Shown one piece after another: positions 680-62,600 of a stretch of DNA of 64,000 bases. The notes under the pieces were generated by a model, which worked only from the letters and a program-made list of their open reading frames with translations, did no database searches and was not told where the DNA came from. The translations under genes and the position numbers were made by a program. How positions within the stretch are numbered: the first letter of the stretch is position 1; every line of letters starts with the position of its first letter. Source of the DNA: Eledone cirrhosa (lineage: Eukaryota); contig OZ024765.1 in assembly GCA_964016885.1 (NCBI GenBank), forward strand, positions 3,720,001 to 3,784,000, read 5' to 3'.

Positions 680-1040
680 AAAAAGGACCCAATCCACACT
701 TTAAATTGGTTGTGTAGGTGTCATGACAAAAAGGACCCAGTCCACACTAAAATGGTTGTGCAGGTATCATGACAAAAAGGACCCAGTCCACACTAAAGTG
801 GTTGTGTAGGTGTCATGACAAAAAGTACCCAGTCCACACTGTGAAGTGGTTGTGTTGGTGACATAATAAAAAGCACCCAGTCCACTCTGTACAGTGGTTG
901 TGTTGATGACATGATACAAGGTACCCACTCCACACTGTACAGTGGTTGTGTTGGTGACATGATAAAAAGTACCCAGTTCACACTGTAAAGTGGTCATGTT
1001 GGTGACATGACAAAAAGCACCCAGACCACACTATGAAGTG
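680..1040 (+). repeat. ~48-bp minisatellite (aaaagcacccagtccacactgtaaagtggt..gtaggtgtca), ~7 copies, derived from an internal SINE segment
   Basis: Visible periodicity (16-aa period in the ORF track). The same motif occurs once or twice inside SINEs at 1590-1630 and 44350-44425. Confidence 0.85.
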
Positions 1041-1389
1041 TAAAATTAAATTATGTAGTTTGGCGGTGTCATTGATAATTTCCCCCTCACACGAATGACA
1101 TTTGTGGCATAGGTAAATAGTCTCTGATGTATCTTTGGGCAATCAGACGCAATTTCAATTATCTAGTAGTAGAACCCATCATCATCTTATGGTGTCCACA
1201 AGAGTGTCAGTTACAAAGCTTGGCTAGATGTGGTTCTGCCACAGCTGAACACATTGCTGTCCTTTCTCAGGGGGCATATCAGGAGGTGTTGTGTAGTCTG
1301 TGGTTTGATGCAGCAGTCACATACAACGTCCCCATTCTTTAAATATCTCCATTTTGCCAGATTGGCTTTTGCATGACCAACACCAACAT

Positions 1390-1726
1390 GGAGGCACATG
1401 GCTTAGTGGTTAGAGCATTGGCCTTGCAATCGAAAGGTTGTGAGTTCAATTCTCAGACCGGGTGATGTGTTGTTTCCTTGAGCAAGACACTTTATTTCAC
1501 ATTGCTCCAGTTTACTCAGCTGTAGAAATGAGATGATAGGGACTGGGGTCCCTATCATTCCACTGCAAAGTGGTCGTGGAGGTGCCACAGCAAAAAAAAG
1601 CACCCAGCACTCACTGTAAATGAGGTTGGTGTTAGGAAGGGCATCCAGCTGTAGAAATCCAGCCAGTATCAGTTCCCGTCCCACCCTTGCAAGCAGGGAA
1701 AAGTGGACGTAAAATGATGATGATGA
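1390..1726 (+). mobile_element. tRNA-derived SINE (family 2) with RTE-like (ATG)n tail
   Basis: A box tggcttagtgg, B box gagttcaattc, central ccttgagcaagacactt motif, 3' end gtggacgtaaaatgatgatgatg. Near-identical copy at 44147-44538. Confidence 0.85.
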
Positions 1727-2805: not shown

Positions 2806-4030
2806 CAAGATACTCTCATGGAATGACCAAATGAGGTTTATTTTTCAACATGCAGGATTTCACAGCTCTAGAATCACTCCTTCATAGGCTGACCAAGATA
2901 CTCTCATGGAATGACCAAATGAGGTTTATTTTTCAACATGCAAGATTTCACAGCTCTAGCATCACTCCTTCATAGGCTGACCAAGATACTCTCATGGAAT
3001 GACCAAATGAGGTTTATTTTTCAACATGCAAAATTGCACAGTTCTAGCATCACTCCTTCATAGGCTGACCAAGATAATCTCATGGAATGACCAAATGAGG
3101 TTTATTTTTCAACATGCAAGATTTCACAGCTCTAGCATCACTCCTTCATAGGCTGACCAAGATACTCTCATGGAATGACCAAATGAGGTTTATTTTTCAA
3201 CATGCAAGATTGCACAGCTCTAGCATCACTCCTTCGTAGGCTGTCCAAGATACTCTCATGGAATGACCAAATGTGGTTTATTTTTCAACATGCAAGATTT
3301 CACAGCTCTAGCATCACTCCTTCATAGGCTGACCAAGATACTCTCATGGAATGACCAAATGACGTTTATTTCTCAACATGCAAGATTTCACAGCTCTAGC
3401 ATCACTCCTTCATAGGCTGACCAAGATGCTCTCATGGAATGACCAAATGAGGTTTATTTTTCAACATGCAAGATTTCACAGCCCTAGCATCACTCCTTCA
3501 TAGGCTGACCAAGATACTCTCATGGAATGACCAAATGACGTTTATTTCTACACATGCAAGATTTCACAGCTCTAGCGTCACTCCTTCATAGGCTGACCAA
3601 GATACTCTCATAGAATGACCAAATGAGGTTTATTTTTCAACATGCAAGATTTCACAGCTCTAGCATCACTCCTTCATAGGCTGACCAAGATACTCTCATG
3701 GAATGACCAAATGACGTTTATTTCTCAACATGCAAGATTTCACAGCTCTAGCATCACCCCTTCATAGGCTGACCAAGATACTCTCATGGAATGACCAAAT
3801 GAGGTTAATTTTTCAACATGCAAGATTGCACAGCTCTAGCATCATTCCTTCATAGGCAGACCAAGATATTCTCATGGAATGACCAAATGAGGTTTATTTT
3901 TCAACATGCAAGATTACACAGCTCTAGCATCACTCCTTCATAGGCTGACCAAGATACTCTCATGGAATGACCAAATGAGGTTTATTTTTCAACATGCAAG
4001 ATTTCACAGCCCTAGCATCACTCCTTCATA
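2806..4030 (+). repeat. 88-bp satellite array 1 (~14 monomers)
   Basis: Monomer caagatactctcatggaatgaccaaatgaggtttatttttcaacatgcaagatttcacagctctagcatcactccttcataggctgac; starts at 2806 and 2894 give an 88-bp period. Confidence 0.97.
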
Positions 4031-4630
4031 GTGTGCCTATGAACTTTTAAGCCTACCTTCGTATATGTAAACAATGTATTTATTTAATATACAAACAATT
4101 AATTACTAAGAAATTCGAAATAATTTTTGCACCCATTTTTGCGATTAAGTAAAGACGGAGTTATCGTTCTTGAGATTTCGGCTCGGAGAAATTTGAGGAA
4201 CTGATGTCGCTAAATCGCCAAATCATTTACCTACCCCGTTGCATCATGGGAGGGTAATGGCTGCCCTTTATTTTTTAAACGATGGCAGATTCTTTAGTTT
4301 CTATCGCAGCATCTTCTTCCTTGTTTCATATAAGTAAATAAGTAAAACATTTTGGCGAGAAAGATATTAAAAGGTCTTCTGTGGTTTAAAAAAAATAAAA
4401 GGCAGCCATTACCATCCCATGGTGCAACGGGGCAGATAAATGATTTGGCGATTTAGCGACATCAGTTCCTAAAATTTCTCCAAGCCGAAATCTCAAGAAC
4501 GATAACTCCGTCTTTACTTAATCGCAAAAATGGGTGCAAAAATTATTTCGAATTTCTTAGTAATTATTTGTATATTAAATAAATACATTGTTTACATATA
4601 CGAAGGTAGGCTTAAAAGTTCATAGGCTCA
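4030..4630. repeat. Palindrome core 1: ~250-bp inverted arms around a 103-bp spacer (4281-4383)
   Basis: 4030-4280 is the reverse complement of 4384-4630, e.g. agcctaccttcgtatatgtaaac vs gtttacatatacgaaggtaggct. Confidence 0.95.
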
Positions 4631-5258
4631 CTATGAAGGAGTGATGCTAGGGCTGTGAAATCTTGCATGTTGAAAAATAAACCTCATTTGATCATTCCAT
4701 GAGAGTATCTTGGTCAGCCTATGAAGGAGTGATGCTAGAGCTGCGAAATCCTGCATGTTGAAAAATAAACCTCATTTGGTCAATCCATGAGAATATCTTG
4801 GTCAGCCTATGAAGGAGTGATACTAGAGCTGTGAAATCTCGCATGTTGAAAAATAAACCTCATTTGCTCATTCCATGAGAGTATCTTGGTCAGCCTATGA
4901 AGGAGTGATGCTAGAGCTGCGAAATCCTGCATGTTGAAAAATAAACCTCATTTGGTCAATCCATGAGAATATCTTGGTCAGCCTATGAAGGAGTGATGCT
5001 AGAGCTGCGAAATCCTGCATGTTGAAAAATAAACCTCATTTGGTCAATCCATGAGAATATCTTGGTCAGCCTATGAAGGAGTGATACTAGAGCTGTGAAA
5101 TCTCGCATGTTGAAAAATAAACCTCATTTGTTCATTCCATGAGAGTATCTTGGTCAGCCTATGAAGGAGTGATGCTAGAGTTGTGAAATCTTGCATGTTG
5201 AAAAATAAACCTCATTGTGTCATTCCATGAGAGTAACCTGGTCAGCCTACCTTCGTAT
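4599..5258 (+). mobile_element. Mariner-type MITE with internal tandem expansion (~7 inverted 88-bp monomers)
   Basis: Starts TA-cgaaggtaggcttaaaagttcataggct and ends agcctaccttcg-TA (TIRs plus TA). The monomer contains gttgaaaaataa (VEK-stop), a typical mariner transposase terminus. Confidence 0.75.
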
Positions 5259-5529
5259 ATTATATATATCATTGAATACTTCCAGTGTCACTACTCTGTC
5301 ATTTGAGGGATGTTTAGTCGCTACTTCTAGTATTTTTAACCGCTGAAGAGGTTTTTCATCAGTTTTGTAAGGTATTGTAGGGTAAACTGTTGAATATGGC
5401 ATATATTTGAGTGTTGTTTAACCACTAAAACTATCATTATTTATAATATTTCAGTGGCTGCCATTTCTAGCATTCAGTAGACTCTTCGTTTTGTTGTCTT
5501 TCATTTAGTTTACATATTGAGACCCACAT

Positions 5530-5623
5530 AATACACACACACACACATATATATATATATGTAAATACGTATATATATACATATATATACATACATACAT
5601 ATATATACATACATACATACATA

Positions 5624-5687
<64 letters not shown>

Positions 5688-5764
5688 CATACATATATAT
5701 AAGCAGACATACATATATATATGCATACATATATATAAACATATATATATACATATATATATAC

Positions 5765-5797
<33 letters not shown>

Positions 5798-5842
5798 GAT
5801 ACATATATATATATATATATACATACATATATATATATACAT

Positions 5843-5878
<36 letters not shown>

Positions 5879-5885
5879 GCATACA

Positions 5886-5920
<35 letters not shown>

Positions 5921-6043
5921 GTATATACATACATATATATATATACATACATTCATATATATCTATATATATATACATACATTCATATATATCTATATAT
6001 ACATATATATATACATACATATATATATATATGTGTGTGTGTG
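5530..6043. repeat. Compound (TA)n/(TACA)n microsatellite; second copy at 13075-13570
   Basis: Direct reading; the same compound pattern recurs in the second macro-unit. Confidence 0.95.
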
Positions 6044-6044
6044 A

Positions 6045-9000
6045 ATAGGCTGACCAAGATATTCTCATGGAATGACCAAATGAGGTTTATTTTTCAACAT
6101 GCAAGATTTCACAGCTCTAGCATCACTCCTTCATAGGCTGACCAAGATACTCTCATGGAATGACCAAATGAGGTTTATTTTTCAACATGCAAGATTGCAC
6201 AACTCTAGCATCACTCCTTCGTAGGCTGTCCAAGATACTCTCATGGAATGACCAAATGTGGTTTATTTTTCAACATGCAAGATTTCACAGCTCTAGCATC
6301 ACTCCTTCATAGGCTGACCAAGATACTCTCATGGAATGACCAAATGACGTTTATTTTTCAACATGCAAGATTTCATAGCTCTACCATCACTCCTTCATAG
6401 GCTGACCAAGATACTCTCATGGAATGACCAAATGAGGTTTATTTTTCAACATGCAAGATTTCACAGCTCTAGAATCACTCCTTCATAGGCTGACCAAGAT
6501 ACTCTCATGGAATGACCAAATGAGGTTTATTTGACAACATGCAAGATTTCACAGCTCTAGCATCACTCCTTCATAGGCTGACCAAGATACTCTCATGGAA
6601 TGACCAAATGACGTTTATTTCTCAACATGCAAGATTTCACAGCTATAGCATCACTCCTTCATAGGCTGACCAAGATACTCTCATGGAATGACCAAATGAC
6701 GTTTATTTTTCAACATGCAAGATTTCACAGCTCTAGCATCACTCCTTCATAGGCTGACCAAGATACTCTCATGGAATGACCAAATGAGGTTTATTTTTCA
6801 ACATGCAAGATTGCACAGCTCTAGCATCACTCCTTTGTAGGCTGTCCAAAATACTCTCATGGAATGACCAAATGTGGTTTATTTTTCAACATGCAAGATT
6901 TCACAGCTCTAGCATCACTCCTTCATAGGCTGACCAAGATACTCTCATGGAATGACCAAATGAGGTTTATTTTTCAACATGCAAGATTTCATAGCTCTAG
7001 CATCACTCCTTCATAGGCTGACCAAGATACTCTCATGGAATGACCAAATGAGGTTTATTTTTCAACATGCAAGATTACACAGCTCTAGCATCACTCCTTC
7101 ATAGGCTGACCAAGATACTCTCATGGAATGACCAAATGAGGTTTATTTTTCAACATGAAAGATTTCACAGCTCTAGCATCACTCCTTCATAGGCTGACCA
7201 TGATACTCTCATGGAATGACCAAATGAGGTTTATTTTTCAACATGCAAGATTTCACAGCTCTAGCATCACTCCTTCATAAGCTGACCAAGATACTCTCAT
7301 GGAATGACCAAATGAGGTTTATTTTTCAACATGAAAGATTTCACAGTTCTAGCATCACTCCTTCATAGGCTGACCAAGATACTCTCATGGAATGACCAAA
7401 TGAGGTTTATTTTTCAATTGCACAGCTCTAGCATCACTCCTTTGTAGGCTGTCCAAGATACTCTCATGGAATGACCAAATGAGGTTTATTTTTCAACATG
7501 CAAGATTTCACAGCTCTAACATCACTCCTTCATAGGCTGACCAAGATACCCTCATGGAATGACCAAATGAGGTTTATTTTCAACATGCAAGATTTCACAG
7601 CTCTAGCATCACTCCTTCATAGGCTGACCAAGATACCCTCATGGAATGACCAAATGAGGTTTATTTTTCAACATGCAAGATTTCACAGCTCTAGCATCAC
7701 TCCTTCATAGGCTGACCAAGATACTCTCATGGAATGACCAAATGAGGTTTATTTTTCAATTGCACAGCTCTAGCATCACTCCTTCGTAGGCTGTCCAAGA
7801 TACTCTCATGGAATGACCAAATGAGGTTTATTTTTCAACATGCAAGATTTCACAGCTCTAGCATCACTCCTTCATAGGCCGACCAAGATACCCTCATGGA
7901 ATGACCAAATGAGGTTTATTTTTCAACATGCAAGATTGCACAGCTCTAGCATCACTCCTTTGTAGGCTGTCCAAAATACTCTCATGGAATGACCAAATGT
8001 GGTTTATTTTTCAACATGCAAGATTTCACAGCTCTAGCATCACTCCTTCATAGGCTGACCAAGATACTCTCATGGAATGACCAAATGAGGTTTATTTTTC
8101 AACATGAAAGATTTCACAGCTCTAGCATCACTCCTTCATAGGCTGACCAAGATACTCTCATGGAATGACCAAATGAGGTTTATTTTTCAATTGCACAGCT
8201 CTAGCATCACTCCTTTGTAGGCTGTCCAAGATACTCTCATGGAATGACCAAATGAGGTTTATTTTTCAACATGCAAGATTTCACAGCTCTAGCATCACTC
8301 CTTCATAGGCTGACCAAGATACTCTCATGGAATGACCAAATGAGGTTTATTTTTCAACATGCAAGATTTCACAGCTCTAGCATCACTCCTTCATAGGCTG
8401 ACCAAGATACCCTCATGGAATGACCAAATGAGGTTTATTTTTCAACATGCAAGATTTCACAACTCTAGCATCACTCCTTCATAGGCTGACCAAGATACCC
8501 TCATGGAATGACCAAATGAGGTTTATTTTTCAACATGCAAGATTTCACAGCTCTAGCATCACTCCTTCATAGGCTGACCAAGATACTCTCATGGAATGAC
8601 CAAATGACGTTTATTTTTCAATTGCACAGCTCTAGCATCACTCCTTTGTAGGCTGTCCAAGATACTCTCATGGAATGACCAAATGAGGTTTATTTTTCAA
8701 CATGCAAGATTTCACAGCTCTAGCATCACTCCTTCATAGGCTGACCAAGATACTCTCATGGAATGACCAAATTAGGTTTATTTTTCAACATGCAAGGTTT
8801 CACAGCTCTAGCATCACTCCTTCATAGGCTGACCAAGATACCCTCATGGAATGACCAAATGAGGTTTATTTTTCAACATGCAAGATTTCACAACTCTAGC
8901 ATCACTCCTTCATAGGCTGACCAAGATACCCTCATGGAATGACCAAATGAGGTTTATTTTTCAACATGCAAGATTTCACAGCTCTAGCATCACTCCTTCA

Positions 9001-11930
9001 TAGGCTGACCAAGATACTCTCATGGAATGACCAAATGAGGTTTATTTTTCAATTGCACAGCTCTAGCATCACTCCTTCGTAGGCTGTCCAAGATACTCTC
9101 ATGGAATGACCAAATGAGGTTTATTTTTCAACATGCAAGATTTCACAGCTCTAGCATCACTCCTTCATAGGCCGACCAAGATACCCTCATGGAATGACCA
9201 AATGAGGTTTATTTTTCAACATGCAAGATTGCACAGCTCTAGCATCACTCCTTTGTAGGCTGTCCAAAATACTCTCATGGAATGACCAAATGTGGTTTAT
9301 TTTTCAACATGCAAGATTTCACAGCTCTAGCATCACTCCTTCATAGGCTGACCAAGATACTCTCATGGAATGACCAAATGAGGTTTATTTTTCAACATGA
9401 AAGATTTCACAGCTCTAGCATCACTCCTTCATAGGCTGACCAAGATACTCTCATGGAATGACCAAATGAGGTTTATTTTTCAATTGCACAGCTCTAGCAT
9501 CACTCCTTTGTAGGCTGTCCAAGATACTCTCATGGAATGACCAAATGAGGTTTATTTTTCAACATGCAAGATTTCACAGCTCTAGCATCACTCCTTCATA
9601 GGCTGACCAAGATACTCTCATGGAATGACCAAATGAGGTTTATTTTTCAACATGCAAGATTTCACAGCTCTAGCATCACTCCTTCATAGGCTGACCAAGA
9701 TACCCTCATGGAATGACCAAATGAGGTTTATTTTTCAACATGCAAGATTTCACAACTCTAGCATCACTCCTTCATAGGCTGACCAAGATACCCTCATGGA
9801 ATGACCAAATGAGGTTTATTTTTCAACATGCAAGATTTCACAGCTCTAGCATCACTCCTTCATAGGCTGACCAAGATACTCTCATGGAATGACCAAATGA
9901 CGTTTATTTTTCAATTACACAGCTCTAGCATCACTCCTTTGTAGGCTGTCCAAGATACTCTCATGGAATGACCAAATGAGGTTTATTTTTCAACATGCAA
10001 GATTTCACAGCTCTAGCATCACTCCTTCATAGGCTGACCAAGATACTCTCATGGAATGACCAAATTAGGTTTATTTTTCAACATGCAAGGTTTCACAGCT
10101 CTAGCATCACTCCTTCATAGGCTGACCAAGATACCCTCATGGAATGACCAAATGAGGTTTATTTTTCAACATGCAAGATTTCACAACTCTAGCATCACTC
10201 CTTCATAGGCTGACCAAGATACCCTCATGGAATGACCAAATGAGGTTTATTTTTCAACATGCAAGATTTCACAGCTCTAGCATCACTCCTTCATAGGCTG
10301 ACCAAGATACTCTCATGGAATGACCAAATGAGGTTTATTTTTCAATTGCACAGCTCTAGCATCACTCCTTCGTAGGCTGTCCAAGATACTCTCATGGAAT
10401 GACCAAATGAGGTTTATTTTTCAACATGCAAGATTTCACAGCTCTAGCATCACTCCTTCATAGGCCGACCAAGATACCCTCATGGAATGACCAAATGAGG
10501 TTTATTTTTCAACATGCAAGATTGCACAGCTCTAGCATCACTCCTTTGTAGGCTGTCCAAAATACTCTCATGGAATGACCAAATGTGGTTTATTTTTCAA
10601 CATGCAAGATTTCACAGCTCTAGCATCACTCCTTCATAGGCTGACCAAGATACTCTCATGGAATGACCAAATGAGGTTTATTTTTCAACATGAAAGATTT
10701 CACAGCTCTAGCATCACTCCTTCATAGGCTGACCAAGATACTCTCATGGAATGACCAAATGAGGTTTATTTTTCAATTGCACAGCTCTAGCATCACTCCT
10801 TTGTAGGCTGTCCAAGATACTCTCATGGAATGACCAAATGAGGTTTATTTTTCAACATGCAAGATTTCACAGCTCTAGCATCACTCCTTCATAGGCTGAC
10901 CAAGATACTCTCATGGAATGACCAAATGAGGTTTATTTTTCAACATGCAAGATTTCACAGCTCTAGCATCACTCCTTCATAGGCTGACCAAGATACCCTC
11001 ATGGAATGACCAAATGAGGTTTATTTTTCAACATGCAAGATTTCACAACTCTAGCATCACTCCTTCATAGGCTGACCAAGATACCCTCATGGAATGACCA
11101 AATGAGGTTTATTTTTCAACATGCAAGATTTCACAGCTCTAGCATCACTCCTTCATAGGCTGACCAAGATACTCTCATGGAATGACCAAATGACGTTTAT
11201 TTTTCAATTGCACAGCTCTAGCATCACTCCTTTGTAGGCTGTCCAAGATACTCTCATGGAATGACCAAATGAGGTTTATTTTTCAACATGCAAGATTTCA
11301 CAGCTCTAGCATCACTCCTTCATAGGCTGACCAAGATACTCTCATGGAATGACCAAATTAGGTTTATTTTTCAACATGCAAGGTTTCACAGCTCTAGCAT
11401 CACTCCTTCATAGGCTGACCAAGATACCCTCATGGAATGACCAAATGAGGTTTATTTTTCAACATGCAAGATTTCACAACTCTAACATCACTCCTTCATA
11501 GGCTGACCAAGATACCCTCATGGAATGACCAAATGAGGTTTATTTTTCAACATGCAAGATTTCACAGCTCTAGCATCACTCCTTCATAGGCTGACCAAGA
11601 TACTCTCATGGAATGACCAAATGAGGTTTATTTTTCAATTGCACAGCTCTAGCATCACTCCTTCGTAGGCTGACCAAGATACTCTCATGGAATGACCAAA
11701 TGAGGTTTATTTTTCAACATGCAAGATTTCACAGCCCTAGCATCACTCCTTCATAGGCTGACCAAGATACTCTCATCGAATGACCAAATGACGTTTATTT
11801 CTCAACATGCAAAATTTCACAGCTCTAGCGTCACTCCTTCATAGGCTGACCAAGATACTCTCATGGAATGATCAAATGAGGTTTATTTTTCAACATGCAA
11901 GATTTCACAGCCCTAGCATCACTCCTTCAT
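6045..11930 (+). repeat. 88-bp satellite array 2 (~68 monomers) with higher-order repeat
   Basis: Same monomer. A 79-bp deletion variant recurs every 431 bp and diagnostic SNPs recur every 1293 bp. Confidence 0.97.
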
Positions 11931-12803
11931 AGTGAGCCTATGAACTTTTAAGCCTACCTTCGTATATGTAAACAATGTATTTATTTAATATACAAATAAT
12001 TACTAAGAAATTCGAAATAATTTTTGCACCCATTTTTGCGATTAAGTAAAGACGGAGTTATCGTTCTTGAGATTTCGGCTCGGTGAAAATTGAGGAACTG
12101 ATGTCGCTAAATCGCCAAATCATTTACCTGCCCCATTGCACCATGGGAGGGTAATGGCTGCCCTTTATTTTTTAAACGATGGCAGATTCTTTAGTTTCTA
12201 TCGCAGCATCTTCTTCCTTGTTTCATATAAGTAAATAAGTAAAACATTTTGGCGAGAAAGATATTAAAAGGTCTTCTGTAGTTTAAAAAAAATAAAAGGC
12301 AGCCATTACCATCCCATGGTGCAACGGGGCAGATAAATGATTTGGCGATTTAGCGACATCAGTTTCTAAAATTTCTCCAAGCCGAAATCTCAAGAACGAT
12401 AACTCCTTCTTTACTTAATCGCAAAAATGGGTGCAAAAATTATTTCGAATTTCTTAGTAATTATTTGTATATTAAATAAATACATTGTTTACATATACGA
12501 AGGTAGGCTTAAAAGTTCATAGGCTCACTATGAAGGAGTGATGCTAGGGCTGTGAAATCTTGCATGTTGAAAAATAAACCTCATTTGCTCATTCCATGAG
12601 AGTATCTTGGTCAACCTATGAAGGAGTGATGCTAGAGCTGTGAAATCCTGCATGTTGAAAAATAAACCTCATTTGGTCAATCCATGAGAATATCTTGGTC
12701 AGCCTATGAAGGAGTGATACTAGAGCTGTGAAATCTCGCATGTTGAAAAATAAACCTCATTGTGTCATTCCATGAGAGTAACCTGGTCAGCCTACCTTCG
12801 TAT
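11930..12803. repeat. Palindrome core 2 (spacer 12178-12280) plus ~3 inverted monomers ending in the MITE TIR
   Basis: Same arms and spacer as core 1, with a few substitutions. Confidence 0.95.
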
Positions 12804-13168: not shown

Positions 13169-13232
<64 letters not shown>

Positions 13233-50274: not shown

Positions 50275-51403
50275 AGTAATTTACCGAGAATTATCTGTAA
50301 TTATAATCTAATATAGTTCAGTTTCTTGTCTTAAATATCCTGGAACTCTGTTTACACGATATAATTAGATTAGATGTAATTATAATATATTATAACTCAG
50401 TTTCTTGTCTTAGATATCCTGGGACTCTGATTAAAGCAAAAGATAACATGTTCCTGGTTACGTTGAAAATATTTCCCTCTACTGAACAATACCGGTGTCA
50501 TATCAAAATCATATCCTGCGATATTTTAATACATTCGGAAACATCTTTAATTTATCCAACCCATGGTAAATAACTTAATATACATTAGCTATCAAAGTAA
50601 CTACTAATATGTATCATGTTGGATGGCTATACAGGGTTGCTGAACGAGCTATAAATAGCAGTCAAATGATCCCTCAAATTTCAGCCTAACATCTTATTAA
50701 ATGAAGAACACATTGGACGTTATTTTAGTTTAGATATACAAAATATACCTGATGATCATGGTTGGAATGTCTTTTTAACAGAATCTGGAACATTGGCAGT
50801 AACCAATTGGGTAATGAGATCGATAATTAATCAATTTCTTTCTTTGATTTTCTGTGATTAAGTTTTAATTGAAAGTATTAGCCTTATTTTACGTTAGGGA
50901 GTCAACGACACCATCAGAACTAGAAGTAACTCTTATAACTTTCAGATTCTCAAATATTCTAATATTTCACTTTTTTAAATCAACGAAGTGTGACAGAAAT
51001 TTTCAACATTTTAAATCACAAAGAAATGTTTACGTTGAATGTATTTAAAATACTCCCTGTGTGATATCATTACATGATGATGATGATGAGAGATCCCACA
51101 CTCACTGCTGAGGGTCGGGGTCTATGGACAATTGCATCAATGTTCACCTATATGTTGTTGAATGTCCACGTTTCTCCTCGGGGGGAATAAAAAGGAATGT
51201 TGGTGAGTCCCTAATCGGCGCCTGAATATTAACCGGAAGCTGGCTACCAGGTCACAGTTGTCCCCCTTCATCACAAAAAGGAAGGTGTAATTTATATATA
51301 TATATATATAGATGAGATTCTACAGGACTAGAACTGTTTCATTCTCTGCTATGTATTGAGTACCTTACTTACTGTGGTTACCTCCGATTCAACCCGGAAT
51401 AAC

Positions 51404-52385: not shown

Positions 52386-52873
52386 TAAGATGTTTGAATG
52401 ATATTTGAAGAGTCATTTGGTTTCTATCTCTAGCACGTTCAGAAACCCTGTGCAGCCATCCTACATGATACATATTAGTAGTTACTTCGATGGCTAACGT
52501 AAATTGCGTTATTGACCATGGGTTGGAAACAATTGAAGATGTTTCTGAATAAATTAAACTATACCAGGATATTATTTTGATATGACACCGGTATCGTTCA
52601 GTCGTGGGAAACATTTTTAACGTAACCAGGAACATATTAACAGAGTCCCAGGATATCTAAGCCAAGAAACTGAACTATAATATATTATAATTACATCTAA
52701 TCTAATTATATCGTGTAAACAGAGTCCCAGGATATCTAGGACAAGAAACTAAACTATAATAAATTATAATTATATCTAATCTAATTATATCGTGTAAACA
52801 GAGTCCCAGGATATCTAAGCCAAGAAACTGAACTATAATATATTATAATTACAGATAATTCTCGGAAATTACT

Positions 52874-54385
52874 ATGGAGGATGTTAAACAGTTGGAAACT
52901 TTTACTGAACAAACATCGTTACACGGAAATATTCCTGAATATTGTTGTAAGATTTGTAAGAAAACTTTCACTTCAGAAGATGAAGTAATCACACACAAAG
53001 AAACACACAAGAGTGAGAAACCTTTACACTGTGAAATTTGTGGCAAATTTTTCAGTTATAATTCCAAACTAGTCCTCCACAAAAGAATACACACTGGAGA
53101 AAAACTATTTCGGTGTGAAATATGTGGTAAATCTTTCACGCAAAAATCAAGTCTTGTGGTTCACAAACGGAGACACACTGGAGAGAAACCATTTCATTGT
53201 GAAATATGTGGGGAGTCATTCTTTAATAATTCTTGTCTTGTTATCCACGTACGTAGTCACACTGGGGAAAAACCATTCCACTGTGAAATTTGTGGGAAAT
53301 CTTTTACCTCTAAAAGTATTTTAATCATTCACAAAAAAAGACATGCGGGAGAGAAAAGTTTTCGTTGTGAGACATGTGGGAAATCTTTCGTTACTAATGC
53401 TGAATTAACAAAGCACAACAGAAGACACACTGGAGAAAACCGCTTTCATTGTGAAATATGTGGGGAGTTTTTTCTCGATAGCAGTAATTTAATAACTCAC
53501 AAAAGAATCCATACTGGAGAAAAACCTTTTCACTGTGAAATTTGTGGTAAATCTTTCACTCAACACACTCATCTCGTCATCCATAGACGTAGTCACACGG
53601 GAGAGAAACCTTATCAGTGTGAATTATGTGGGAAATCTTTTGTTTTTAGTACATCGCTTGTTATCCATAGACGTACACACACAGGAGAGAAACCATTTCA
53701 CTGTGAAATATGTGGGAACCGTTTCCTTTCACGTTATAATTTAACAACACATATAAGTACACACACTGGAGAAAAACCCTTCCAATGTGAAATATGTGGA
53801 AAATATTTTGTGTGTAGCGGTAACTTATCAGCACATAAAAGAATTCACACTGGTATCAACCTGTTTTATTGTGAAATTTGTGGGAAATCTTGTGTTACAA
53901 ATTCAAATCTTGTTGCACACAAGCGTATTCATACCGGAGAGAAACCATTTCACTGTGAAATATGTGGAAAATCCCTTTTCACTAGCAGTAGTTTAAGACA
54001 ACATAAAATGTCACACACTGGGGAGAAACCATTTCATTGTGAAGAATGTGGCAAATCTTATGTTACTAATTCAACTCTTGTTGCTCACAAGCGTATTCAT
54101 ACTGGGGAGCAACAATTCCACTGTAAAATATGTGGGAAATCACTTTTGAGCAGCAGTAGTTTAAGACAACACATAAGTATACACACAGGAGAGAAACCAT
54201 TTCATTGTGAAGTGTGTGGGAAATCTTTCAGCACTAATGATAGGTTAAAATTACATACAAGTACACACACTGGAGAAAAGCCCTACCACTGTGACATTTG
54301 TGGACAGTCTTTTGTCAGAAACGATCGTTTAACAAAACACAGAAAAATCCATGCCAGGGAAAGTCCGTTATATTGTGAAATATAA
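52874..54385 (+). CDS. C2H2 zinc-finger protein, subfamily B (503 aa, 17 fingers; 26-aa N-terminal deletion)
   Basis: Intact ORF. Confidence 0.95.
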   Translation: MEDVKQLETFTEQTSLHGNIPEYCCKICKKTFTSEDEVITHKETHKSEKPLHCEICGKFFSYNSKLVLHKRIHTGEKLFRCEICGKSFTQKSSLVVHKRRHTGEKPFHCEICGESFFNNSCLVIHVRSHTGEKPFHCEICGKSFTSKSILIIHKKRHAGEKSFRCETCGKSFVTNAELTKHNRRHTGENRFHCEICGEFFLDSSNLITHKRIHTGEKPFHCEICGKSFTQHTHLVIHRRSHTGEKPYQCELCGKSFVFSTSLVIHRRTHTGEKPFHCEICGNRFLSRYNLTTHISTHTGEKPFQCEICGKYFVCSGNLSAHKRIHTGINLFYCEICGKSCVTNSNLVAHKRIHTGEKPFHCEICGKSLFTSSSLRQHKMSHTGEKPFHCEECGKSYVTNSTLVAHKRIHTGEQQFHCKICGKSLLSSSSLRQHISIHTGEKPFHCEVCGKSFSTNDRLKLHTSTHTGEKPYHCDICGQSFVRNDRLTKHRKIHARESPLYCEI

Positions 54386-54404
54386 CATTAGTAGCGTGTT
54401 AAAA

Positions 54405-54910
54405 TATACACACTGGAGAGAAGACTTTAAACTGTAGACATTAAGAAATCTTTATTGTGTAAATCTAAATATATTGTCTACCATCATGTACAGACTGGAG
54501 GGAAGACTTTAAACTGTGAACCTTGAGAAATATTGCTTGTGTAAATCTAAATATATTGTCTACTAACATGTACAGACTGGAGGGAAGACTTTAAACTGTG
54601 AACCTTGAGAAATATTTCTTGTGTAAATCTAAATATATTGTCTACTAACATGTACACACTGGAGGGAAGACTTTACTCTGTGAGCCTTAAGAAATATTTC
54701 TTGTGTAAATCTAAATATATTGTCTACTAACATGTACACACTGGAGGGAAGACTTTACTCTATGAGCCTTAAGAAATATTTCTTGTGTAAATCTAAATAT
54801 ATTGTCTACTAACATGTACACACTAGAGGAAGACTTTAAACTGTGAACCTTAAGAAATCTTTCTTATGTTAATCTAAATATATTGTCTTACCAACATGTA
54901 CACAATGGAG
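54405..54910 (+). repeat. 82-bp degenerate zinc-finger repeat in putative 3' UTR (~6 copies; ~5 copies at 59700-60122)
   Basis: Unit contains cacactggagggaagactttaaactgtgaaccttga (HTGGKTLNCEP-stop). Period 82 from starts at 54488 and 54570. Confidence 0.85.
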
Positions 54911-55484: not shown

Positions 55485-56640
55485 TTAATAATGATAATAA
55501 TAATAAAATTGTGTACAGTGCTCAGGTGCACTACAACTCATCAAAGGTGTGTGTATAGTACATAGAGTAGTGTACAAATGTCAGGAAAGTGATCAGTGTA
55601 TGAGTCATGATATACATGTCTGCATATGTATGGAGGTTTTATAGGATGCAGTGTCTCAGCAGCTAATAACTAATGCAGGTTTTAAGGGATGCAGTGTCTC
55701 GGCAGGTAGTTTGTTCCATGGAGGTTTTAAAGGATGCAGTGTCTTGACAGCTAACAACTGATGCAGGTAGTTTGTTCCATGGAGGTTTTAAAGGATGCAG
55801 TGTCTCGACAGCTAACAACTAATGCAGGTAGTTTGTTCCATGGAGGTTTTAAAGGATGCAGTGTCTCGACAGCTAACAACTGCTGCAGGTAGTTTGTTCC
55901 ATGGAGGTTTTAAAGGATGCAGTGTCTTGACAGCTAACAACTGCTGCAGGTAGTTTGTTCCATGGAGGTTTTAAAGGATGCAGTGTCTCGACAGCTAACA
56001 ACTAATGCAGGTAGTTTGTTCCATGGAGGTTTTAAAGGATGCAGTGTCTCGACAGCTAACAACTGATGCAGGTAGTTTGTTCCATGGAGGTTTTAAAGGA
56101 TGCAGGTAGCTTATTTCATGCTTCAGCAACTCTGAGGTTTTCCTCAATTTCACCAGTTCCATTCTCCTCTCTGTTTATCAAAGGTGTAGTAGGATGGTAT
56201 TGTATTTGTCTATACAGTAAAGTTTGTGCAAAGCCTTGAGTTCTATAAAGTTTTTAAAAATGTTAGCAAAGTTGTCTTTCATGTTGCTATGGCTTGTTGG
56301 ACTGTAAAATACTCTCTTGTGATGCTAAAGTCTGCCAGTTGTAGATTGCTCATCAACACGAGATATTTTTCTCCACAAAGTTTGATCACCAACAGCAGAG
56401 ATCAAGTCCGTTCCATAAGTTGACATTATCAAGCCATCATTTTGACTGCCGGCCTCCGTTTCTCTTACCAGCCAACCTTTTTTCAAGGAATATATATCTT
56501 TCGATCACCAGCAGCAGACTTTAAAGAGCAAAGATCAATAGATTGACATTATCAAGCCATAGATTTGGCTGCCTGCCTCTGCTTCTCTAACCAGCCAACC
56601 TTCCTTCCAGGCATAACCTACTCACACCATGAGTTGATCT
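55485..56640 (-). mobile_element. CR1/L2-like LINE 3' end with 61-bp tandem array (55630-56105); duplicate at 60685-61560 has fewer units
   Basis: Minus-strand WNKLPASVVSCRDTASFKTS motif and (TTA)n tail. Period 61 from starts at 55720 and 55781. Confidence 0.7.
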
Positions 56641-58180
56641 TTTTATATGACTATATAGTTTAAGTACTCTTGACTTGACAATTGATGTAATTTGTCTAAG
56701 TCTGGTAACGTTGAGCAGCTCACTGAGCCACTTGAAAACACTTTATAACAAAATATTGCTTAATAAATTTATCTTTCTTTCTGTAAATAAACTTTTCAGT
56801 GTTCTTAATTTTTCTGGCATAAATAAAACCAGCGACATATTTAAATAAATGTATTGTTTTAATAGACACCCTACTTTATAGTTATCTTCATAATCTACAT
56901 CTGTTTTATCAACACCATATGTAAACCTCCATTGCCCCCCAACTAAACGAAGAGCTATCCCAGAGATGTTTAGTCTTGGTTGTTAGACTGTCGAGAATAA
57001 GGGTCACTCTGATATCAAAACCTGGGTAGATGAGACTCCTTTGTCACTTAGGTGACAACCTTTCAAGTAACCAACAACTTTAGCTTGGTGATAAAGGGGG
57101 ACAACTGTGACTTGGTAGCCAGCTTCCGGTTAATATTCAGGTGAGGATTAGGGACTCATCAACGTTATTTTTTTTTAACCTGAGGAGAAACATGGACATT
57201 CAACAACATATAGGTGAACATTGATGCAATTGTCCATAGACCCTGACCCTCAGCAGTGAGTGTGGGGTCTATCATCATCATCATCATGTAATGATATCAC
57301 ACAGGGAGTATTTTAAATACATTCAACGTAAACATTTCTTTGTAATTTAAAATGTTGAAAATTTCTGTCACACTTCGTTGATTTAAAAAAGTGAAATATT
57401 AGAATATTTGAGAATCTGAAAGTTATAAGAGTTACTTCTAGTTCTGATGGTGTCGTTGACTCCCTAACGTAAAGTAAGGCTAATACTTTCAATTAAAACT
57501 TAATCACAGAGAAAATCAAAGAAAGAAATTGATTAATTATCGATCTCATTACCTAATTGGTTATTGCCAATGTTCCAGATTCTGTTAAAAAGACATTCCA
57601 ACCATGATCATCAGGTATATTTTGTATATCTAAACTAAAATAAATAACGTCCAATGTGTTCTTCATTTAATAAGATTTTAGGCTGAAATTTGAGGGATCA
57701 TTTAACTGCTATTTCTAGCACGTTCAGACCCCTGTATAGCCATCCTACATGATACTTATTAGTAGTTATTTTGATAGCTAATGTATATTAAGTTATTTAC
57801 CATGGGTTGGATACAATTCAAGATGTTTCCGAATGTATTAAAATATCGCAGGATATTATTTTGATATGACACCGGTATTGTTCAGTAGAGGGAAATATTT
57901 TCAACGTAACCAGGAACATGTTATCTTTTAAAATTTGGTTTAATCCAGTTATGTATAGAGAGTCCCAGGCTATCTAAGACAGGAAACTGAACAATAATAT
58001 ATTATAATTACATCTAATCTAATTATATCGTGTAAACAGAGTCCCAGGATATCTAGGACAAGAAACTAAACTATAATATATTATAATCTAATTATATCGT
58101 GTAAACAGAGTCTCAGGATATTTAAGACAAGAAACTGAACTATTTTAGATTATAATTACAGATAATTCTCGGAAATTACT

Positions 58181-59680
58181 ATGGAGGATGTTAAACAGTT
58201 GGACATTTCTAACACAACTGTGTTTAACAATATCGATACAGTTACACAGACATACAGTGATGAGAAACCTTTATCTAATGAAACGTTTACTGAACAAACA
58301 TCGTTACACGGAAATATTCCTGAATATTGTTGTGAGATTTGTAAGAAAACTTTCTCTTCAGAAGATGAAGTCATCACACACAAAGAAACACACAAGAGTG
58401 AGAAACTTTTCGACTGTGAAATTTGTGGCAAATCTTTTGCCAGTAAGAAATATTTAACACAACACAAAAGAACACACACTGGAGAGAAACCTTACCACTG
58501 TGGAATATGTGGGAAATCTTTTGTTTTTAATTCAGCACTTGTTATCCACAAATGTAGTCACACTGGAGAAATATTCTGTGAAATATGTGGAAAATCTTTT
58601 GGCAGTAATGATCATTTAAAAAGACACATAAGAACACATACTGGAGAGGAACCATACCACTGTGAGATATGTGGCAAATCTTTTGCCCGTAATGGTCATT
58701 TAAAAATACACATAAGAACACATACTGGAGAGGAACCTTACCACTGTGAGATATGTGGCAAATCTTTTGCCAGTAAGAAATATTTCAGGAAACACAAAAG
58801 ATCACACACTGGAGAAGATCGATTTCATTGTGAAATATGTGGGAAATGTTTTGTTTCTAATTCGGATCTTGTTATCCACAGACGTATTCACACTGGAGAG
58901 AAACGTCACCACTGTGAAATATGTGGCAAATCTTTTGCCAGTAACAGTAATTTAACAAAACATAAAAGAACGCACACAGGAGAGAAACCATTCCATTGTG
59001 AAATATGTGGGAACCGTTTCCTTTCACATTATAATTTAACAACACATATAAGTACACACACTGGAGAAAAACCCTTCCAATGTGAAATATGTGGAAAATA
59101 TTTTGTGTGTAGCGGTAATTTATCAGCACATAAAAGAATTCACACTGGTAACAACCTGTTTTATTGTGAAATTTGTGGGAAATCTTGTGTTACAAATTCA
59201 ACTCTTGTTGCACACAAGCGTATTCATACCGGAGAGAAACCATTTCACTGTGAAATATGTGGAAAATCCCTTTTCACTAGCAGTAGTTTAAGACAACATA
59301 AAAGGTCACACACTGGGGAGAAACCATTTCATTGTGAAGAATGTGGCAAATCTTATGTTACTAATTCAACTCTTGTTGCTCACAAGCGTATTCATACTGG
59401 GGAGCAACAATTCCACTGTAAAATATGTGGGAAATCACTTTTGAGCAGCAGTAGTTTAAGACAACACATAAGTATACACACAGGAGAGAAACCATTTCAT
59501 TGTGAAGTGTGTGGGAAATCTTTCAGCACTAATGATAGGTTAAAATTACATACAAGTACACACACTGGAGAAAAGCCCTACCACTGTGACATTTGTGGAC
59601 AGTCTTTTGTCAGAAACGATCGTTTAACAAAACACAGAAAAATCCATGCCAGGGAAAGTCCGTTATATTGTGAAATATAA
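58181..59680 (+). CDS. C2H2 zinc-finger protein, subfamily B (499 aa, 16 fingers)
   Basis: Intact ORF. Confidence 0.95.
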   Translation: MEDVKQLDISNTTVFNNIDTVTQTYSDEKPLSNETFTEQTSLHGNIPEYCCEICKKTFSSEDEVITHKETHKSEKLFDCEICGKSFASKKYLTQHKRTHTGEKPYHCGICGKSFVFNSALVIHKCSHTGEIFCEICGKSFGSNDHLKRHIRTHTGEEPYHCEICGKSFARNGHLKIHIRTHTGEEPYHCEICGKSFASKKYFRKHKRSHTGEDRFHCEICGKCFVSNSDLVIHRRIHTGEKRHHCEICGKSFASNSNLTKHKRTHTGEKPFHCEICGNRFLSHYNLTTHISTHTGEKPFQCEICGKYFVCSGNLSAHKRIHTGNNLFYCEICGKSCVTNSTLVAHKRIHTGEKPFHCEICGKSLFTSSSLRQHKRSHTGEKPFHCEECGKSYVTNSTLVAHKRIHTGEQQFHCKICGKSLLSSSSLRQHISIHTGEKPFHCEVCGKSFSTNDRLKLHTSTHTGEKPYHCDICGQSFVRNDRLTKHRKIHARESPLYCEI

Positions 59681-62600
59681 CATTAGTAGCGTGTTAAAAT
59701 ATACACACTGGAGAGAAGACTTTAAACTGTAGACATTAAGAAATCTTTATTGTGTAAATCTCAATATATTGTCTACCATCATGTACAGACTGGAGGGAAG
59801 ACTTTAAACTGTGAACCTTGAGAAATATTTCTTGTGTAAATCTAAATATATTGTCTACTAACATGTACACACTGGAGGGAAGACTTTACTCTGTGAGCCT
59901 TAAGAAATATTTCTTGTGTAAATCTAAATATATTGTCTACTAACATGTACACACTGGAGGAAGACTTTAAACTGTGAACCTTAAGAAATCTTTCTTATGT
60001 TAATCTAAATATATTGTCTACTAACATGTACACACTGGAGGGAAGACTTTAAACTGTGAACCTTAAGAAATCTTTCTTATGTTAATCTAAATATATTGTC
60101 TTACTAACATGTACACAATGGAGAATATTTATCATAGTGAAATATGTTAGAAATCATTCTCTGTTAATTTTCATCTTGTAGTCTACAAATGTGATCTCAT
60201 TTGAGAGAAACCTTTTCACTAAAATATTTGGGAAATCCTTATTTGTGGTATATAAACTTGTTGATAAATGTATATACACTGGACATTGATGCACAGGGGC
60301 CCTCTATCTTTATTAGTATCCTAAAGTGAAAACACTCGTGCAGTCCTGCATGTATATCCTACCTGGTGTTGCTGCTTTATGGATTTCAAAATACCGTATT
60401 TCCCAGTGCTGAAGGTGCTTCGATCCTCGATGATGAACCCTAATTTTGACAACCAAAAATTTGAAACAACCTTCGGCCTCCAGGACACACGGTAGATTTT
60501 TGAGACTTAATTTAGGAAAAAGTAGCATCTTCAACGCTGGGAAATATGGCAGTTTTCTACTGGCTTTCCTCGTTCCATTCGCTTCTCTGTTCATCAAAGG
60601 TGTAGTAGGATGGTATTTATCCATACAGTAGAGTATGTGCAAAGCTGCCAGTTCTATAAATTTTTTTTTAAATGCTAGCAAAGTTAATAATAATAATAAT
60701 AAAATTATTGTGTACAGTGCTCAGGTGCACTACAACTCATCAAAGGTGCATGTATAGAACATAGAGTAATGTACAAATGTCAGGAAAGTGAACAGTATAT
60801 GAGTCATGATATACATGTCTGCATATGTATGGAGGTGGGTTATTAGGTGTAGTGTTGGTGAATTTCGGGAAGCATGGAGGTTTTATAGGATGCAGTGTTA
60901 CAGCAACTAATAACTAATGTAGGTAGTTTGTTCCATGGAGGTTTTAAAGGATGCAGTGTCTCAGGAGCTAAGAACTAATGCAGGTAGTTTGTTCCATGGA
61001 GGTTTTAAAGGATGCAGGTAGTTTATTCCATGCTTCAGCAACTCTGAGGTTTTCCTCAATTTCACCAGTTCCATTCTCCTCTCTGTTTATCAAAGGTGTA
61101 GTAAGGATGGTATTGTATTTGTCTATACAGTAAAGTTTGTGCAAAGCCTTGAGTTCTATAAAGTTTTAAAAAATGCTAGCAAAGTTGTCTTTCATGTTGC
61201 TATGGCTTGGACTGTAAAATACTCTCTCTTGTGATGCTAAAGTCTGCCAGTTGTAGATTGCTCATCAACACGAGATATTTTTCTCCACAAAGTTTGATCA
61301 CCAACAGCAGAGTTTAAAGAGCAGAGATCAAGTCCGTTCCATAGGTTGACATTATCAAGCCATCATTTTGACTGCGGGCATCTGCTTCTCTTACCAGCCA
61401 ACATTTTTTCAAGGAATATATATCTTTCGATCACCAGCAGCAGACTTTAAAGAGCAAAGATCAATAGATTGACATTATCAAGCCATGGATTTGGCTGCCG
61501 GCCTCTGCTTCTCTAACCAGCCAACCTTCCTTCCAGGCATAACCTACTCACACCATGAGTTGATCTTTTTATATGACTATATAGTTTAAGTACTCTTGAC
61601 TTGACAATTGATGTAATTTGTCTAAGTCTGGTAACGTTGAGCAGCTCACTGAGCCACTTGAAAACACTTTATAACAAAATATTGCTTAATAAATTTATCT
61701 TTCTTTCTGTAAATAAACTTTTCAGTGTTCTTAATTTTTCTGGCATAAATAAAACCAGCGACATATTTAAATAAATGTCTTGTTTTAATAGACACCCTAC
61801 TTTATAGTTATCTTCATAATCTACATCTGTTTTATCAACACCATATGTAAACCTCCATTGCCCCCCAACTAAACGAAGAGCTATCCCAGAGATGTTTAGT
61901 CTTGGTTGTTAGACTGTCTAGAATAAGGGTCACTCTGATATCAAAACCTGGGTAGATGAGACTCCTTTGTCACTTAGGTGACAACCTTTCAAGTAACCAA
62001 CAACTTTAGCTTGGTGATAAAGGGGGACAACTGTGACTTGGTAGCCAGCTTCCGGTTAATATTCAGGTGAGGATTAGGGACTCATCAACGTTATTTTTTT
62101 TTAACCTGAGGAGAAACATGGACATTCAGCAACATATAGGTGAACATTGATGCAATTGTCCATAGACCCCCGACCCTCAGCAGTGAGTGTGGGGTCTCTC
62201 ATCATCATCATCATGTAATGATATCACACAGGAAGTATTTTAAATACATTCAACGTAAACATTTCTTTGTAATTTAAAATGTTGAAAATTTCTGTCACAC
62301 TTCGTTGATTTAAAAAAGTGAAATATTAGAATATTTGAGAATCTGAAAGTTATAAGAGTTACTTCTAGTTCTGATGGTGTCGTTGACTCCCTAACGTAAA
62401 ATAAGGCTAATACTTTCAATTAAAACTTAATCACAGAGAAAATCAAAGAAAGAAATTGATTAATTATCGATCTCATTACCTAATTGGTTACTGCCAATGT
62501 TCCAGATTCTGTTAAAAAGACATTCCAACCATGACTATCAGGTATATTTTGTATATCTAAACTAAAATAATTAACGCCCAATGTGTTCTTCATTTAATAA

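Follow-up and report, generated by a model that had tools for sequence, protein, structure and literature searches.

Short tandem arrays derived from transposable elements and gene ends in a 64-kb C2H2 zinc-finger region

Zinc-finger genes and tandem arrays in the window

The window, i.e., the whole 64-kb stretch of DNA that was analysed, carries seven C2H2 ZNF ORFs (Z1 to Z7) containing 104 fingers, together with the tandem arrays listed in Table 1. In the protein search, the matches listed for the whole Z1 (at least 120) were generic C2H2 proteins, 34-58% identical, and the N-terminal region gave no match.

Table 1. Positions of ZNF ORFs, tandem arrays and related elements in the window
Feature	Position	Strand	Remarks
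C2H2 ORF Z1	16805..18301	-	14 fingers matched
C2H2 ORF Z2	27802..28791	-	10 fingers
C2H2 ORF Z3	39520..41127	-	17 fingers
C2H2 ORF Z4	48391..50280	-	21 fingers
C2H2 ORF Z5	52859..54385	+	17 fingers
C2H2 ORF Z6	58166..59680	+	16 fingers
C2H2 ORF Z7	63009..63998	+	9 fingers; open at window end
79-bp array before Z3 finger exon	41133..41379	-	relatives at 50286-50433, 52639-52853, 57950-58156, 62880-63008
82-bp array from degenerate finger 3' of Z5	54400..54910	+	6.2 copies
54-bp then 42-bp array	27003..27744	-	degenerate finger just past Z2 stop
48-bp SINE-unit array	678..1040	+	7.6 copies (TRF)
48-bp SINE-unit array	16358..16593	-	4.9 copies; runs into SINE body at 16174-16356
48-bp SINE-unit array	19986..20541	+	11.7 copies (TRF)
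SINE with two 49-bp units	44147..44529	+	97% identical copy at 1391-1726 with one unit
SINE 48-bp dimer	45866..45957	-	missed by TRF; genome-wide reads show further tandem units on this stretch
RTE-type ORF2 C-terminal array	30115..30927	-	81-bp and 96-bp units (TRF, translation)
Second RTE-type array	34365..35812	-	81/82-bp units, 17.4 copies
CRE-type endonuclease array	36426..37118	+	79 bp, 8.7 copies; truncated by piggyBac-like MITE end
40-bp array	25421..26053	+	15.9 copies; continues CRE-like 3' end (25160-25420)
CR1-type ORF2 C-terminal array	55630..56105	-	7.8 units of 61 bp; its duplicate (60873-61033) has 2.6
piggyBac-like MITE	37381..37787	-	60-bp array (3.8 copies, one inverted piece) and 44-bp dimer
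piggyBac-like MITE derivative	37966..38750	-	44-bp array, ~16 units
Unarrayed piggyBac-like MITE copies (n=2)	46266..46950 (46266-46470, 46747-46950)	+	TTAA-flanked
Triplicated block	2806..15647	.	repeated architecture around 88-bp arrays
Higher-order repeat in long 88-bp array	7717..11595	+	three 1293-bp blocks of 15 units
138-bp array	21242..21636	+	2.8 copies; no source assigned (TRF)
AT-rich 42-bp short array	26261..26414	+	relative at 25079-25159; no source assigned

Analysis with TRF (99 rows) resolved 32 tandem-array segments spanning 19,715 bp, that is, 30.8% of the window, a figure that falls to 20.0% without the triplicated block. These segments correspond to 13 unit groups, several of them inherited via duplication. 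The 88-bp mariner-type MITE unit represents 48% of array bases, and within the other 12 groups the units match at 84-97%, i.e., they are diverged. Roughly one third of this ZNF region consists of short tandem repeats from dead transposons and gene ends.

All the arrays named in a preliminary description of this DNA were recovered by TRF (periods 88, 48, 81-96, 79, 44, 60, 61, 42, 82, 79 and 40 bp). That description regarded them as independent products of a systematic conversion of TE fragments into 40-90 bp arrays, a view that the census narrowed in several respects. The six 88-bp segments, rejected as separate events, are all one unit within the triplicated block, the five 79-bp splice segments and the four 82/79-bp segments move with ZNF paralogues, and the two RTE-type loci have a common junction. 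Conversion was not systematic: arrays were present in none of the nine window copies of a second SINE family, in two of four full piggyBac-like MITEs and in two of four CRE-like fragments, and at least three units were found at three of the ten loci of the 48-bp SINE unit. TE fragments are the source of eight of the 13 groups rather than of all of them, with three groups deriving from ZNF genes and two having no source assigned, and the 138-bp array, absent from the earlier list, lies beyond the proposed size range.

Sources and internal structure of the arrays

The 48-bp unit, whose parent we take to be a SINE from its structure and motifs, matched ten loci in the window, single-unit SINE copies included. 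Two of these loci, with 7.6 and 11.7 units, contain at least four middle monomers, a level that the locus with 4.9 units does not reach. In the one-unit SINE at 1391-1726 and in its two-unit relative the unit is bounded by the same 9-bp near-repeat. For the second SINE family, go-back joints with unknown spacers are listed in genome-wide reads, so that it does not constitute a clean genome-wide negative control.

The units of the two RTE-type arrays are 88-91% alike between loci. The CR1-type array and its duplicate bear out the earlier statement that copy number differs between recent duplicates, with 7.8 vs 2.6 copies of the 61-bp unit and flanks that are 96-97% identical. The 40-bp unit, previously given as of unknown source, directly extends a CRE-like 3' end, and its source is likely the 3' UTR of a CRE-like element. 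Regarding the TE sources proposed in the preliminary description, six-frame translations showed the motifs expected for RTE-, CR1- and CRE-type elements, and the family names as such gained no support from Pfam; they are our own assignments from protein motifs, because Pfam, Atlas and a homologue search yielded no names. Of seven queries, Pfam named two, namely the fingers and the second mariner piece, the latter as HTH_48 at E 0.0006 (below cut-off); the five retroelement pieces received no Pfam name. Atlas matches were unnamed clusters only, and the RTE piece had no match in the homologue search. When metagenome and viral collections were scanned for background loci, three motifs gave no match.

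The 44- and 60-bp units map inside TTAA-flanked piggyBac-like MITEs. Two of the four copies of this family are unarrayed, and these hold imperfect direct repeats of ~19 bp spaced ~44 bp. The repeats bounding the MITE-derived units measure 7 bp for the 88-bp unit (inferred), 4 exact bp inside the imperfect ~19-bp repeat for the 44-bp unit, and 0 bp for the 60-bp unit.

Each copy of the triplicated block follows the order 88-bp array, mariner-type TIR, ~540-bp palindromic spacer, TIR, inverted 88-bp array, 281-bp flank and (AT)-rich microsatellite, and the arrays contain 13.9, 7, 68, 3, 15 and 1.9 units. The spacers match at 586-591 of 595-599 positions, and the inverted arms are ~96% alike across ~250 bp, in addition to the inverted 88-bp arrays. 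The copies are three in tandem, with left arms that end in SINE or microsatellite without a TIR. A TA-flanked MITE with TIRs around the array, the right one internally deleted, lies at 4598-5260, and no copy of this MITE with a single 88-bp unit was found within the window. The 1293-bp blocks of the long array rest on a 5-unit (431-bp) sub-block and show mutual differences of 1, 1 and 2 nt, with lag-15 identity in 28 of 52 units.

The 82-bp array located 3' of Z5 has relatives at 59695-60123 (5.2 copies), 46475-46748 and 46113-46266. Its unit corresponds to a finger that lacks 2 nt, whereas the unit of 42 bp next to Z2 is the 54-bp unit minus 12 bp; an origin of the 42-bp unit as half a finger was considered and rejected, because this unit arises in the order 84, 54, 42 through deletions. 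The expansion of dead fingers past the stop codon (82-bp and 54/42-bp arrays) indicates that the process is able to act on finger DNA. Within the coding DNA, adjacent fingers reached a best DNA identity of 0.86, with medians of 0.58-0.76 (97 pairs from the seven ORFs), and no recent single-finger run was detected, as none of the 97 pairs was above 0.86. These values do not favour the earlier proposal that the process behind the arrays could be the engine diversifying the fingers. Single-finger runs are found only past the stop codon, probably because selection purges them from coding DNA. The last 672 bp of Z5 are 99% identical to Z6 and the fingers upstream differ; finger changes between paralogues fall in 16-35 bp of linker homology (Z5/Z6, Z4/Z6). 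Altogether, the data show that coding fingers changed through paralogue exchange at the linker in these pairs.

Origin of the arrays

Nine of 14 junctions were readable, the other five being unreadable, and showed overlaps of 11, 7, 6, 5, 5, 4, 4, 2 and 0 bp, where the value of 7 was inferred from TIR symmetry (3 bp seen directly) and those of 2 and 0 were read by eye. Overlaps of at least 4 bp at seven of the nine, vs a simulated chance of 0.0245 each, correspond to p ~1e-8 to 1e-10, although later end events may have inflated them. The bounding repeats already exist in unarrayed parents (the SINE at 1391-1726 and the MITEs at 46266 and 46747). The short junction overlap suggested in the preliminary description and a fast change in array copy number were thus supported. 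The sequence independence that had been proposed was not supported, since unit ends follow pre-existing repeats and the length of a unit is that of the interval between short repeats which the parent element contained beforehand.

We read the arrays as ordinary TE-derived minisatellites of the sSat, miDNA4 and Xstir type. We consider it probable that they were seeded at short repeats and grew by unequal exchange, apparently genome-wide rather than only in the cluster. According to this model, replication slippage or repair would mis-pair two short repeats that a dead transposon or gene end already contained at a distance of 40-140 bp, and homology of 4-11 bp would suffice to give the seed dimer, in agreement with the observed overlaps; the dimer would then grow via unequal exchange between units, as suggested by the higher-order blocks and by the copy differences between duplicates. 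Segmental duplication carries the arrays along, as observed here, and arrays may behave as variable-number domains of a TE family, a behaviour that the reads show only in the case of the 48-bp SINE unit. The coding fingers of Z5/Z6 and Z4/Z6 follow a related route of longer homology, that of exchange at the linker. With five TE types in 64 kb and parents beside the arrays, the region is a dense example of TE-to-minisatellite conversion, of use for repeat annotation and for the study of minisatellite birth.

Genome-wide occurrence was addressed, for one TE family, in two RAD samples and in contig sets of a same-label run and of a second species; these are four of ten runs, and one of the four may come from the same source as the window. 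RAD depth was 0.6-4x in ZNF-derived bins vs 4,100-21,100x in SINE-unit bins. Reads leaving the 48-bp dimer and returning to its start numbered 328 (14 starts) and 232 (11 starts), and the return joint was present in seven contigs of the same-label run and five of the second species. These joints represent ~4-8% of local depth, which is a floor; the in-window rate of longer SINE arrays (3/10) exceeds this share, the two figures not being comparable. Among the joints listed (15 of 5,106) there was no 44- or 60-bp MITE joint. For scale, we estimate ZNF clusters at ~0.4% of an octopus-sized genome. Tandem organisation of the SINE family in genome-wide reads points to an ordinary genome trait, likely with no special finger engine.

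The high array cover of the window (31%, or 20% without the 88-bp block) counts against the ordinary-minisatellite reading, and would fit the same mechanism with arrays enriched in ZNF clusters, as a symptom of cluster instability and not its cause; in this case the birth or survival of arrays would be favoured by repeated segmental duplication, by frequent unequal exchange or by heterochromatin. The presence of several recent duplications (96-99.6% identity) and the low read depth of the three ZNF-derived groups are in line with this possibility. Tandem repeats of 70-90 bp are reportedly also enriched beside octopus C2H2 genes. No statement of this kind was found in a literature search, nor in the portions of PMC9068888, PMC6279123 and PMC10547256 that were available. 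A beta-satellite association of the human 19p12 ZNF cluster is indicated by a title (Eichler 1998) in the reference list of PMC2443715. However, genome-wide reads contain SINE arrays in abundance, as does the second species, and array cover within the window drops as ZNF density rises, from 61% in 1-16000 (no ZNF ORF) to 29% in 16001-39400 (two) and 13% in 39401-64000 (five), which is also at odds with the unusual local activity claimed earlier. We regard enrichment in clusters as possible, if unlikely. If it were true, the non-coding arrays would offer a neutral measure of the rate at which duplication acts on finger arrays, and the diversification of very large C2H2 repertoires would become directly testable.

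A stronger form, in which cephalopod-type ZNF clusters are minisatellite nurseries where any incoming DNA, whether TE or dead finger, is duplicated in tandem more often than elsewhere, with a bias to 40-48 and 79-88 bp, seems to us rather improbable. Eight of 12 non-finger units fall in those ranges (p 0.0006-0.013), the windows having been picked post hoc, and units of 79-88 bp occur in five of the 13 groups. Under this form, the octopus enrichment would comprise arrays of diverse kinds, each with a birth of its own, and the arrays would give a neutral view of the mutational process behind the reshuffling of fingers.

The count of eight in 12 is also an argument for the preliminary version, a sequence-independent process with a preference for ~84/42 bp that is unusually active here and makes new fingers, together with five of 12 non-finger units in 40-44 or 80-88 bp (p 0.018-0.11) and the expansion of dead fingers. 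Only one of the 12 units lies in 82-86 or 41-43 bp (p 0.64-0.82), or two when 82 bp is taken as the length of the RTE unit (p ~0.25, by hand). That the 82- and 42-bp units come close to 84 and 42 is no independent observation, given that they arose as finger minus 2 and 54 minus 12. Since unit lengths match repeat spacing in the parents, adjacent coding fingers are at most 0.86 identical and finger changes fall in linker homology, we consider such a process highly doubtful. Over-expansion of the 68-unit array and of the triplicated block during assembly, to which the near-identity of the three 1293-bp blocks might point, can hardly explain even part of the signal, as the macro-units differ by ~1.5%, plus small spacer indels and private unit variants, the other 12 groups are diverged and 20% cover remains without the block.

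Comparison with known systems

PRDM9-type genes contain minisatellite finger arrays. The fingers studied here are not homogenised, as indicated by their adjacent identities, and are therefore not PRDM9-like. In mammalian C2H2 clusters, according to the part of PMC2443715 available, close paralogues likewise have different numbers and sets of fingers, the differences being blocks of whole fingers.

The ordinary minisatellites proposed here resemble the SINE-derived satellites (sSats) of squamates, as far as the available part of PMC10702118 describes them, in that units are part of a SINE, the terminal unit runs into the SINE, and arrays occupy many loci with unit numbers varying between orthologous loci; here, arrays at many loci are indicated by return joints in two RAD runs and two contig sets, the loci being unmapped. 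They differ in unit length (126-215 nt vs 48-49 bp), in the host, which here is presumably of invertebrate type, and in that several other TE classes behave likewise in the window. Similarly, the accessible portions of PMC12628747 and PMC9659126 describe, for the Tc1/mariner MITE miDNA4 of Xenopus tropicalis and for Xstir/Xmix, a variable-number array inside a MITE, bounded by direct repeats of at least 5 bp (here probably 7 bp for the 88-bp unit, 4 exact bp for the 44-bp unit and 0 bp for the 60-bp unit), and neighbouring MITE pairs as substrate. In contrast, the 88-bp unit was not captured but comprises the interior of the MITE itself and the inner TIR, and two arrayed MITEs face outwards around a palindrome in a block that is triplicated. 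Foldback elements such as Tetris of Drosophila virilis, in the partial account available, share long inverted arms with tandem repeats, whereas the present copies are in tandem instead of dispersed and their left arms lack a TIR. Finally, as in the satellites associated with ZNF clusters (human 19p12 beta-satellite, octopus repeat), so far as their sources go, short tandem repeats are interleaved with clustered C2H2 genes; the difference is that 13 unrelated units are found here rather than one satellite family.

Census and sources of the tandem arrays

Seven C2H2 zinc-finger (ZNF) ORFs of 330-629 aa, among them Z3 with a Pfam zf-C2H2 match, lie in AT-rich surroundings dense in repeats. The repeats appear to be of an octopus-like type; protein searches gave no placement of the taxon. 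The TRF-based list comprises 32 array segments that together take up 19,715 bp. This equals 30.8% of the window; with the block at 2806-15647 set aside, arrays make up 20.0% of the remaining sequence. All arrays named in a preliminary description were recovered by TRF. Copy number of the 61-bp unit is unequal in two duplicates (7.8 vs 2.6 units). That description had regarded the arrays as independent. The 32 segments collapse to 13 unit groups, derived from transposable elements (TEs; 8), ZNF genes (3) or unassigned sources (2). The 88-bp group accounts for 9,473 bp, 48% of array bases, all inside one triplicated block whose spacers show 586-591 matches per 595-599 positions; ZNF paralogues carry along five 79-bp and four 82/79-bp segments, and the two RTE loci have a common junction, with units 88-91% alike. 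Nor is the conversion of TEs systematic, as had been proposed, since many TE copies in the window are without an array: a second SINE family has arrays in 0 of its 9 window copies, and arrays are lacking in two of four full piggyBac-like MITEs and two of four CRE-like fragments. Copies of the 48-bp SINE unit lie at 10 loci, each holding between 0.7 and 11.6 units; three of these loci have at least 3 units.

RTE-, CR1- and CRE-type motifs are present in translated units and flanks, and two MITEs were recognised by their inverted ends, one TA-flanked and the other TTAA-flanked. The RTE, CR1, CRE and MITE names are those we presume from motifs; library searches with the array source elements returned no family name.

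Positions of arrays, ORFs and other elements in the window
Feature	Position	Observation
SINE parent, unarrayed	1391-1726	bounding repeats already present
Triplicated block	2806-15647	pair of arrayed mariner-type MITEs, outward-facing, ~540-bp palindrome between, arms ~96% alike over 250 bp; foldback-like unit in three tandem copies
Nested higher-order repeat	7717-11595	euchromatic-looking array, either very recent or over-assembled
Palindromic MITE-like elements	23008-23175; 41985-42194; 51549-51785	short, without 40-90 bp arrays; some with (AT)n core
Duplicated 519-bp segment	23197-23715; 32190-32699	97% identity
CRE-like endonuclease fragment	31568-32152	enclosed by inverted repeats of ~60 bp (92% alike), resembling capture by a TIR element
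Second RTE-like copy	35832-35904	5' part inverted vs first copy (30985-31057), 94.5% alike
Snap-back piece in 60-bp array	37536-37580	short, inverted; suggests template switching
Degenerate-finger 79/82-bp array	46113-46950	hosts two piggyBac-like MITEs at TTAA sites
MITE parents, unarrayed	46266; 46747	imperfect ~19-bp repeats ~44 bp apart
Second mariner-type element	47240-47790	decayed, weak Mos1 HTH match (E 0.0006), without array
Z4	48391-50280 (-)	finger 3 composite: opening as in Z6 finger 3, remainder as in Z6 finger 7
Z5	52859-54385 (+)	26 aa missing near its start; with Z6, chimeric paralogues: last eight fingers and 3' flank common, N-terminal fingers different
Z6	58166-59680 (+)	

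Short homology at array junctions

Junctions were readable in 9 of 14 cases (14 for 13 groups, as RTE 81/82 and RTE 96 count separately). Exact overlaps measured 11 bp for the 79-bp splice unit, 6 bp for the 82-bp finger unit, 5 bp each for the 49-bp SINE and RTE 96 units, and 4 bp each for the CR1 61 and 44-bp MITE units; for the 88-bp unit, 7 bp were inferred from TIR symmetry and 3 bp seen directly, and by eye 2 bp were read for RTE 81 and 0 bp for the 60-bp unit. Among 200,000 duplications simulated in non-array DNA, 2.45% had overlaps of at least 4 bp; such overlaps occur at 6 or 7 of the 9 junctions (p ~1e-8 to 1e-10), some possibly inflated by later end events. For two units, the bounding repeats are present beforehand in an unarrayed parent, namely the SINE at 1391-1726 and the MITEs at 46266 and 46747. 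Together with the unarrayed parents, these overlaps support the microhomology suspected earlier, and a duplication process that uses short homology is therefore not sequence-independent, contrary to the same description. In the 68-unit 88-bp array, a 5-unit block is nested in a 15-unit block of 1293 bp, of which there are three copies separated by 1-2 differences each; as assembled, such nesting is the pattern that would be expected of unequal exchange.

Genome-wide or cluster-bound arrays

Altogether, the arrays are probably best explained as TE-derived minisatellites that would form genome-wide, seeded at short repeats. Four of 10 listed runs (three carrying the same species label, namely two RAD read sets and a contig set, and a further contig set from another species) were compared with 44150-48300 at 80% likeness. 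ZNF-derived bins had a RAD depth of 0.6-4x and SINE-unit bins one of 4,100-21,100x, so the SINE reads originate elsewhere. A return from the 48-bp dimer end (45957) to its start (45866) was seen in 328 reads (14 starts) and in 232 reads (11 starts), with at most 55 letters on the shorter side; the same return occurs in 7 contigs of the same species label and 5 of the other species, and this main joint amounts to ~4-8% of local depth. Among the 15 of 5,106 joints listed, other returns imply, by our own arithmetic, periods of 33, 44, 48, 52 and 60 bp, none being a 44- or 60-bp MITE joint. This comparison covers one TE family, at the level of joints. Taking 2,289 C2H2 genes in 5.09 Gb, spaced as in the window, clusters would make up ~0.4% of a genome, a share that would not account for the SINE array reads unless the SINE subfamily is itself concentrated there.

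That the arrays are instead a cluster-enriched symptom is a tentative reading, clearly less probable. The 2015 octopus genome paper reportedly describes enrichment of a 70-90 bp tandem repeat next to C2H2 genes; among the papers listed by our literature searches, none states such enrichment. If this is correct, the association is already known and leaves room for cluster enrichment. Within the window, array cover is 61% without a ZNF ORF, 29% beside two and 13% among five, part of the final decrease (29% to 13%) being due to the space occupied by ORFs.

Coding fingers and known systems

The preliminary description also proposed the array process, with units near the 84-bp finger period, as an engine of finger diversification, which we consider very unlikely. 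Units of 82-86 or 41-43 bp represent 1 of 12 non-finger origins (p 0.64-0.82 by null range; 2 of 12 if the RTE unit is taken as 82), those of 80-88 or 40-44 bp 5 of 12 (p 0.018-0.11), and those of 79-88 or 40-48 bp, the windows of that description, 8 of 12 (p 0.0006-0.013), the nulls being log-uniform guesses and the wide windows having been picked with the data in view. The lengths still fall loosely into two groups, but an 84-bp ruler does not stand. Adjacent pairs among 104 fingers reach at most 0.86 DNA identity (medians 0.58-0.76); non-coding arrays, by contrast, show 84-97% matches (TRF). True minisatellites of finger DNA are found only past stop codons, namely an 82-bp unit (a finger minus 2 nt) and a 54/42-bp one (the 42-bp unit being the 54-bp unit minus 12 nt). 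The coding changes visible here involve whole blocks: identity between Z5 and Z6 is 99% in the final 672 bp and ~70% upstream, with the switch within a linker, Z4 differs from Z6 by a four-finger, 330-bp gap inside at least 16 matching bases, and repeats of two fingers occur at 0.82-0.86. We infer that this pattern fits an unequal-exchange machinery common to fingers and arrays, filtered by selection, rather than TE arrays or short-homology duplication as the driver of finger diversity.

An artefact is more improbable still; the array feature is real and of a known kind. Satellites derived from SINEs are described in PMC10702118, those embedded in MITEs (miDNA4, Xstir), together with models of microhomology and unequal exchange, in PMC12628747 and PMC9659126, and gain and loss of fingers in clusters in PMC2443715. 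Each step of the window arrays is covered by these known SINE-satellite, MITE-satellite and finger gain/loss systems.
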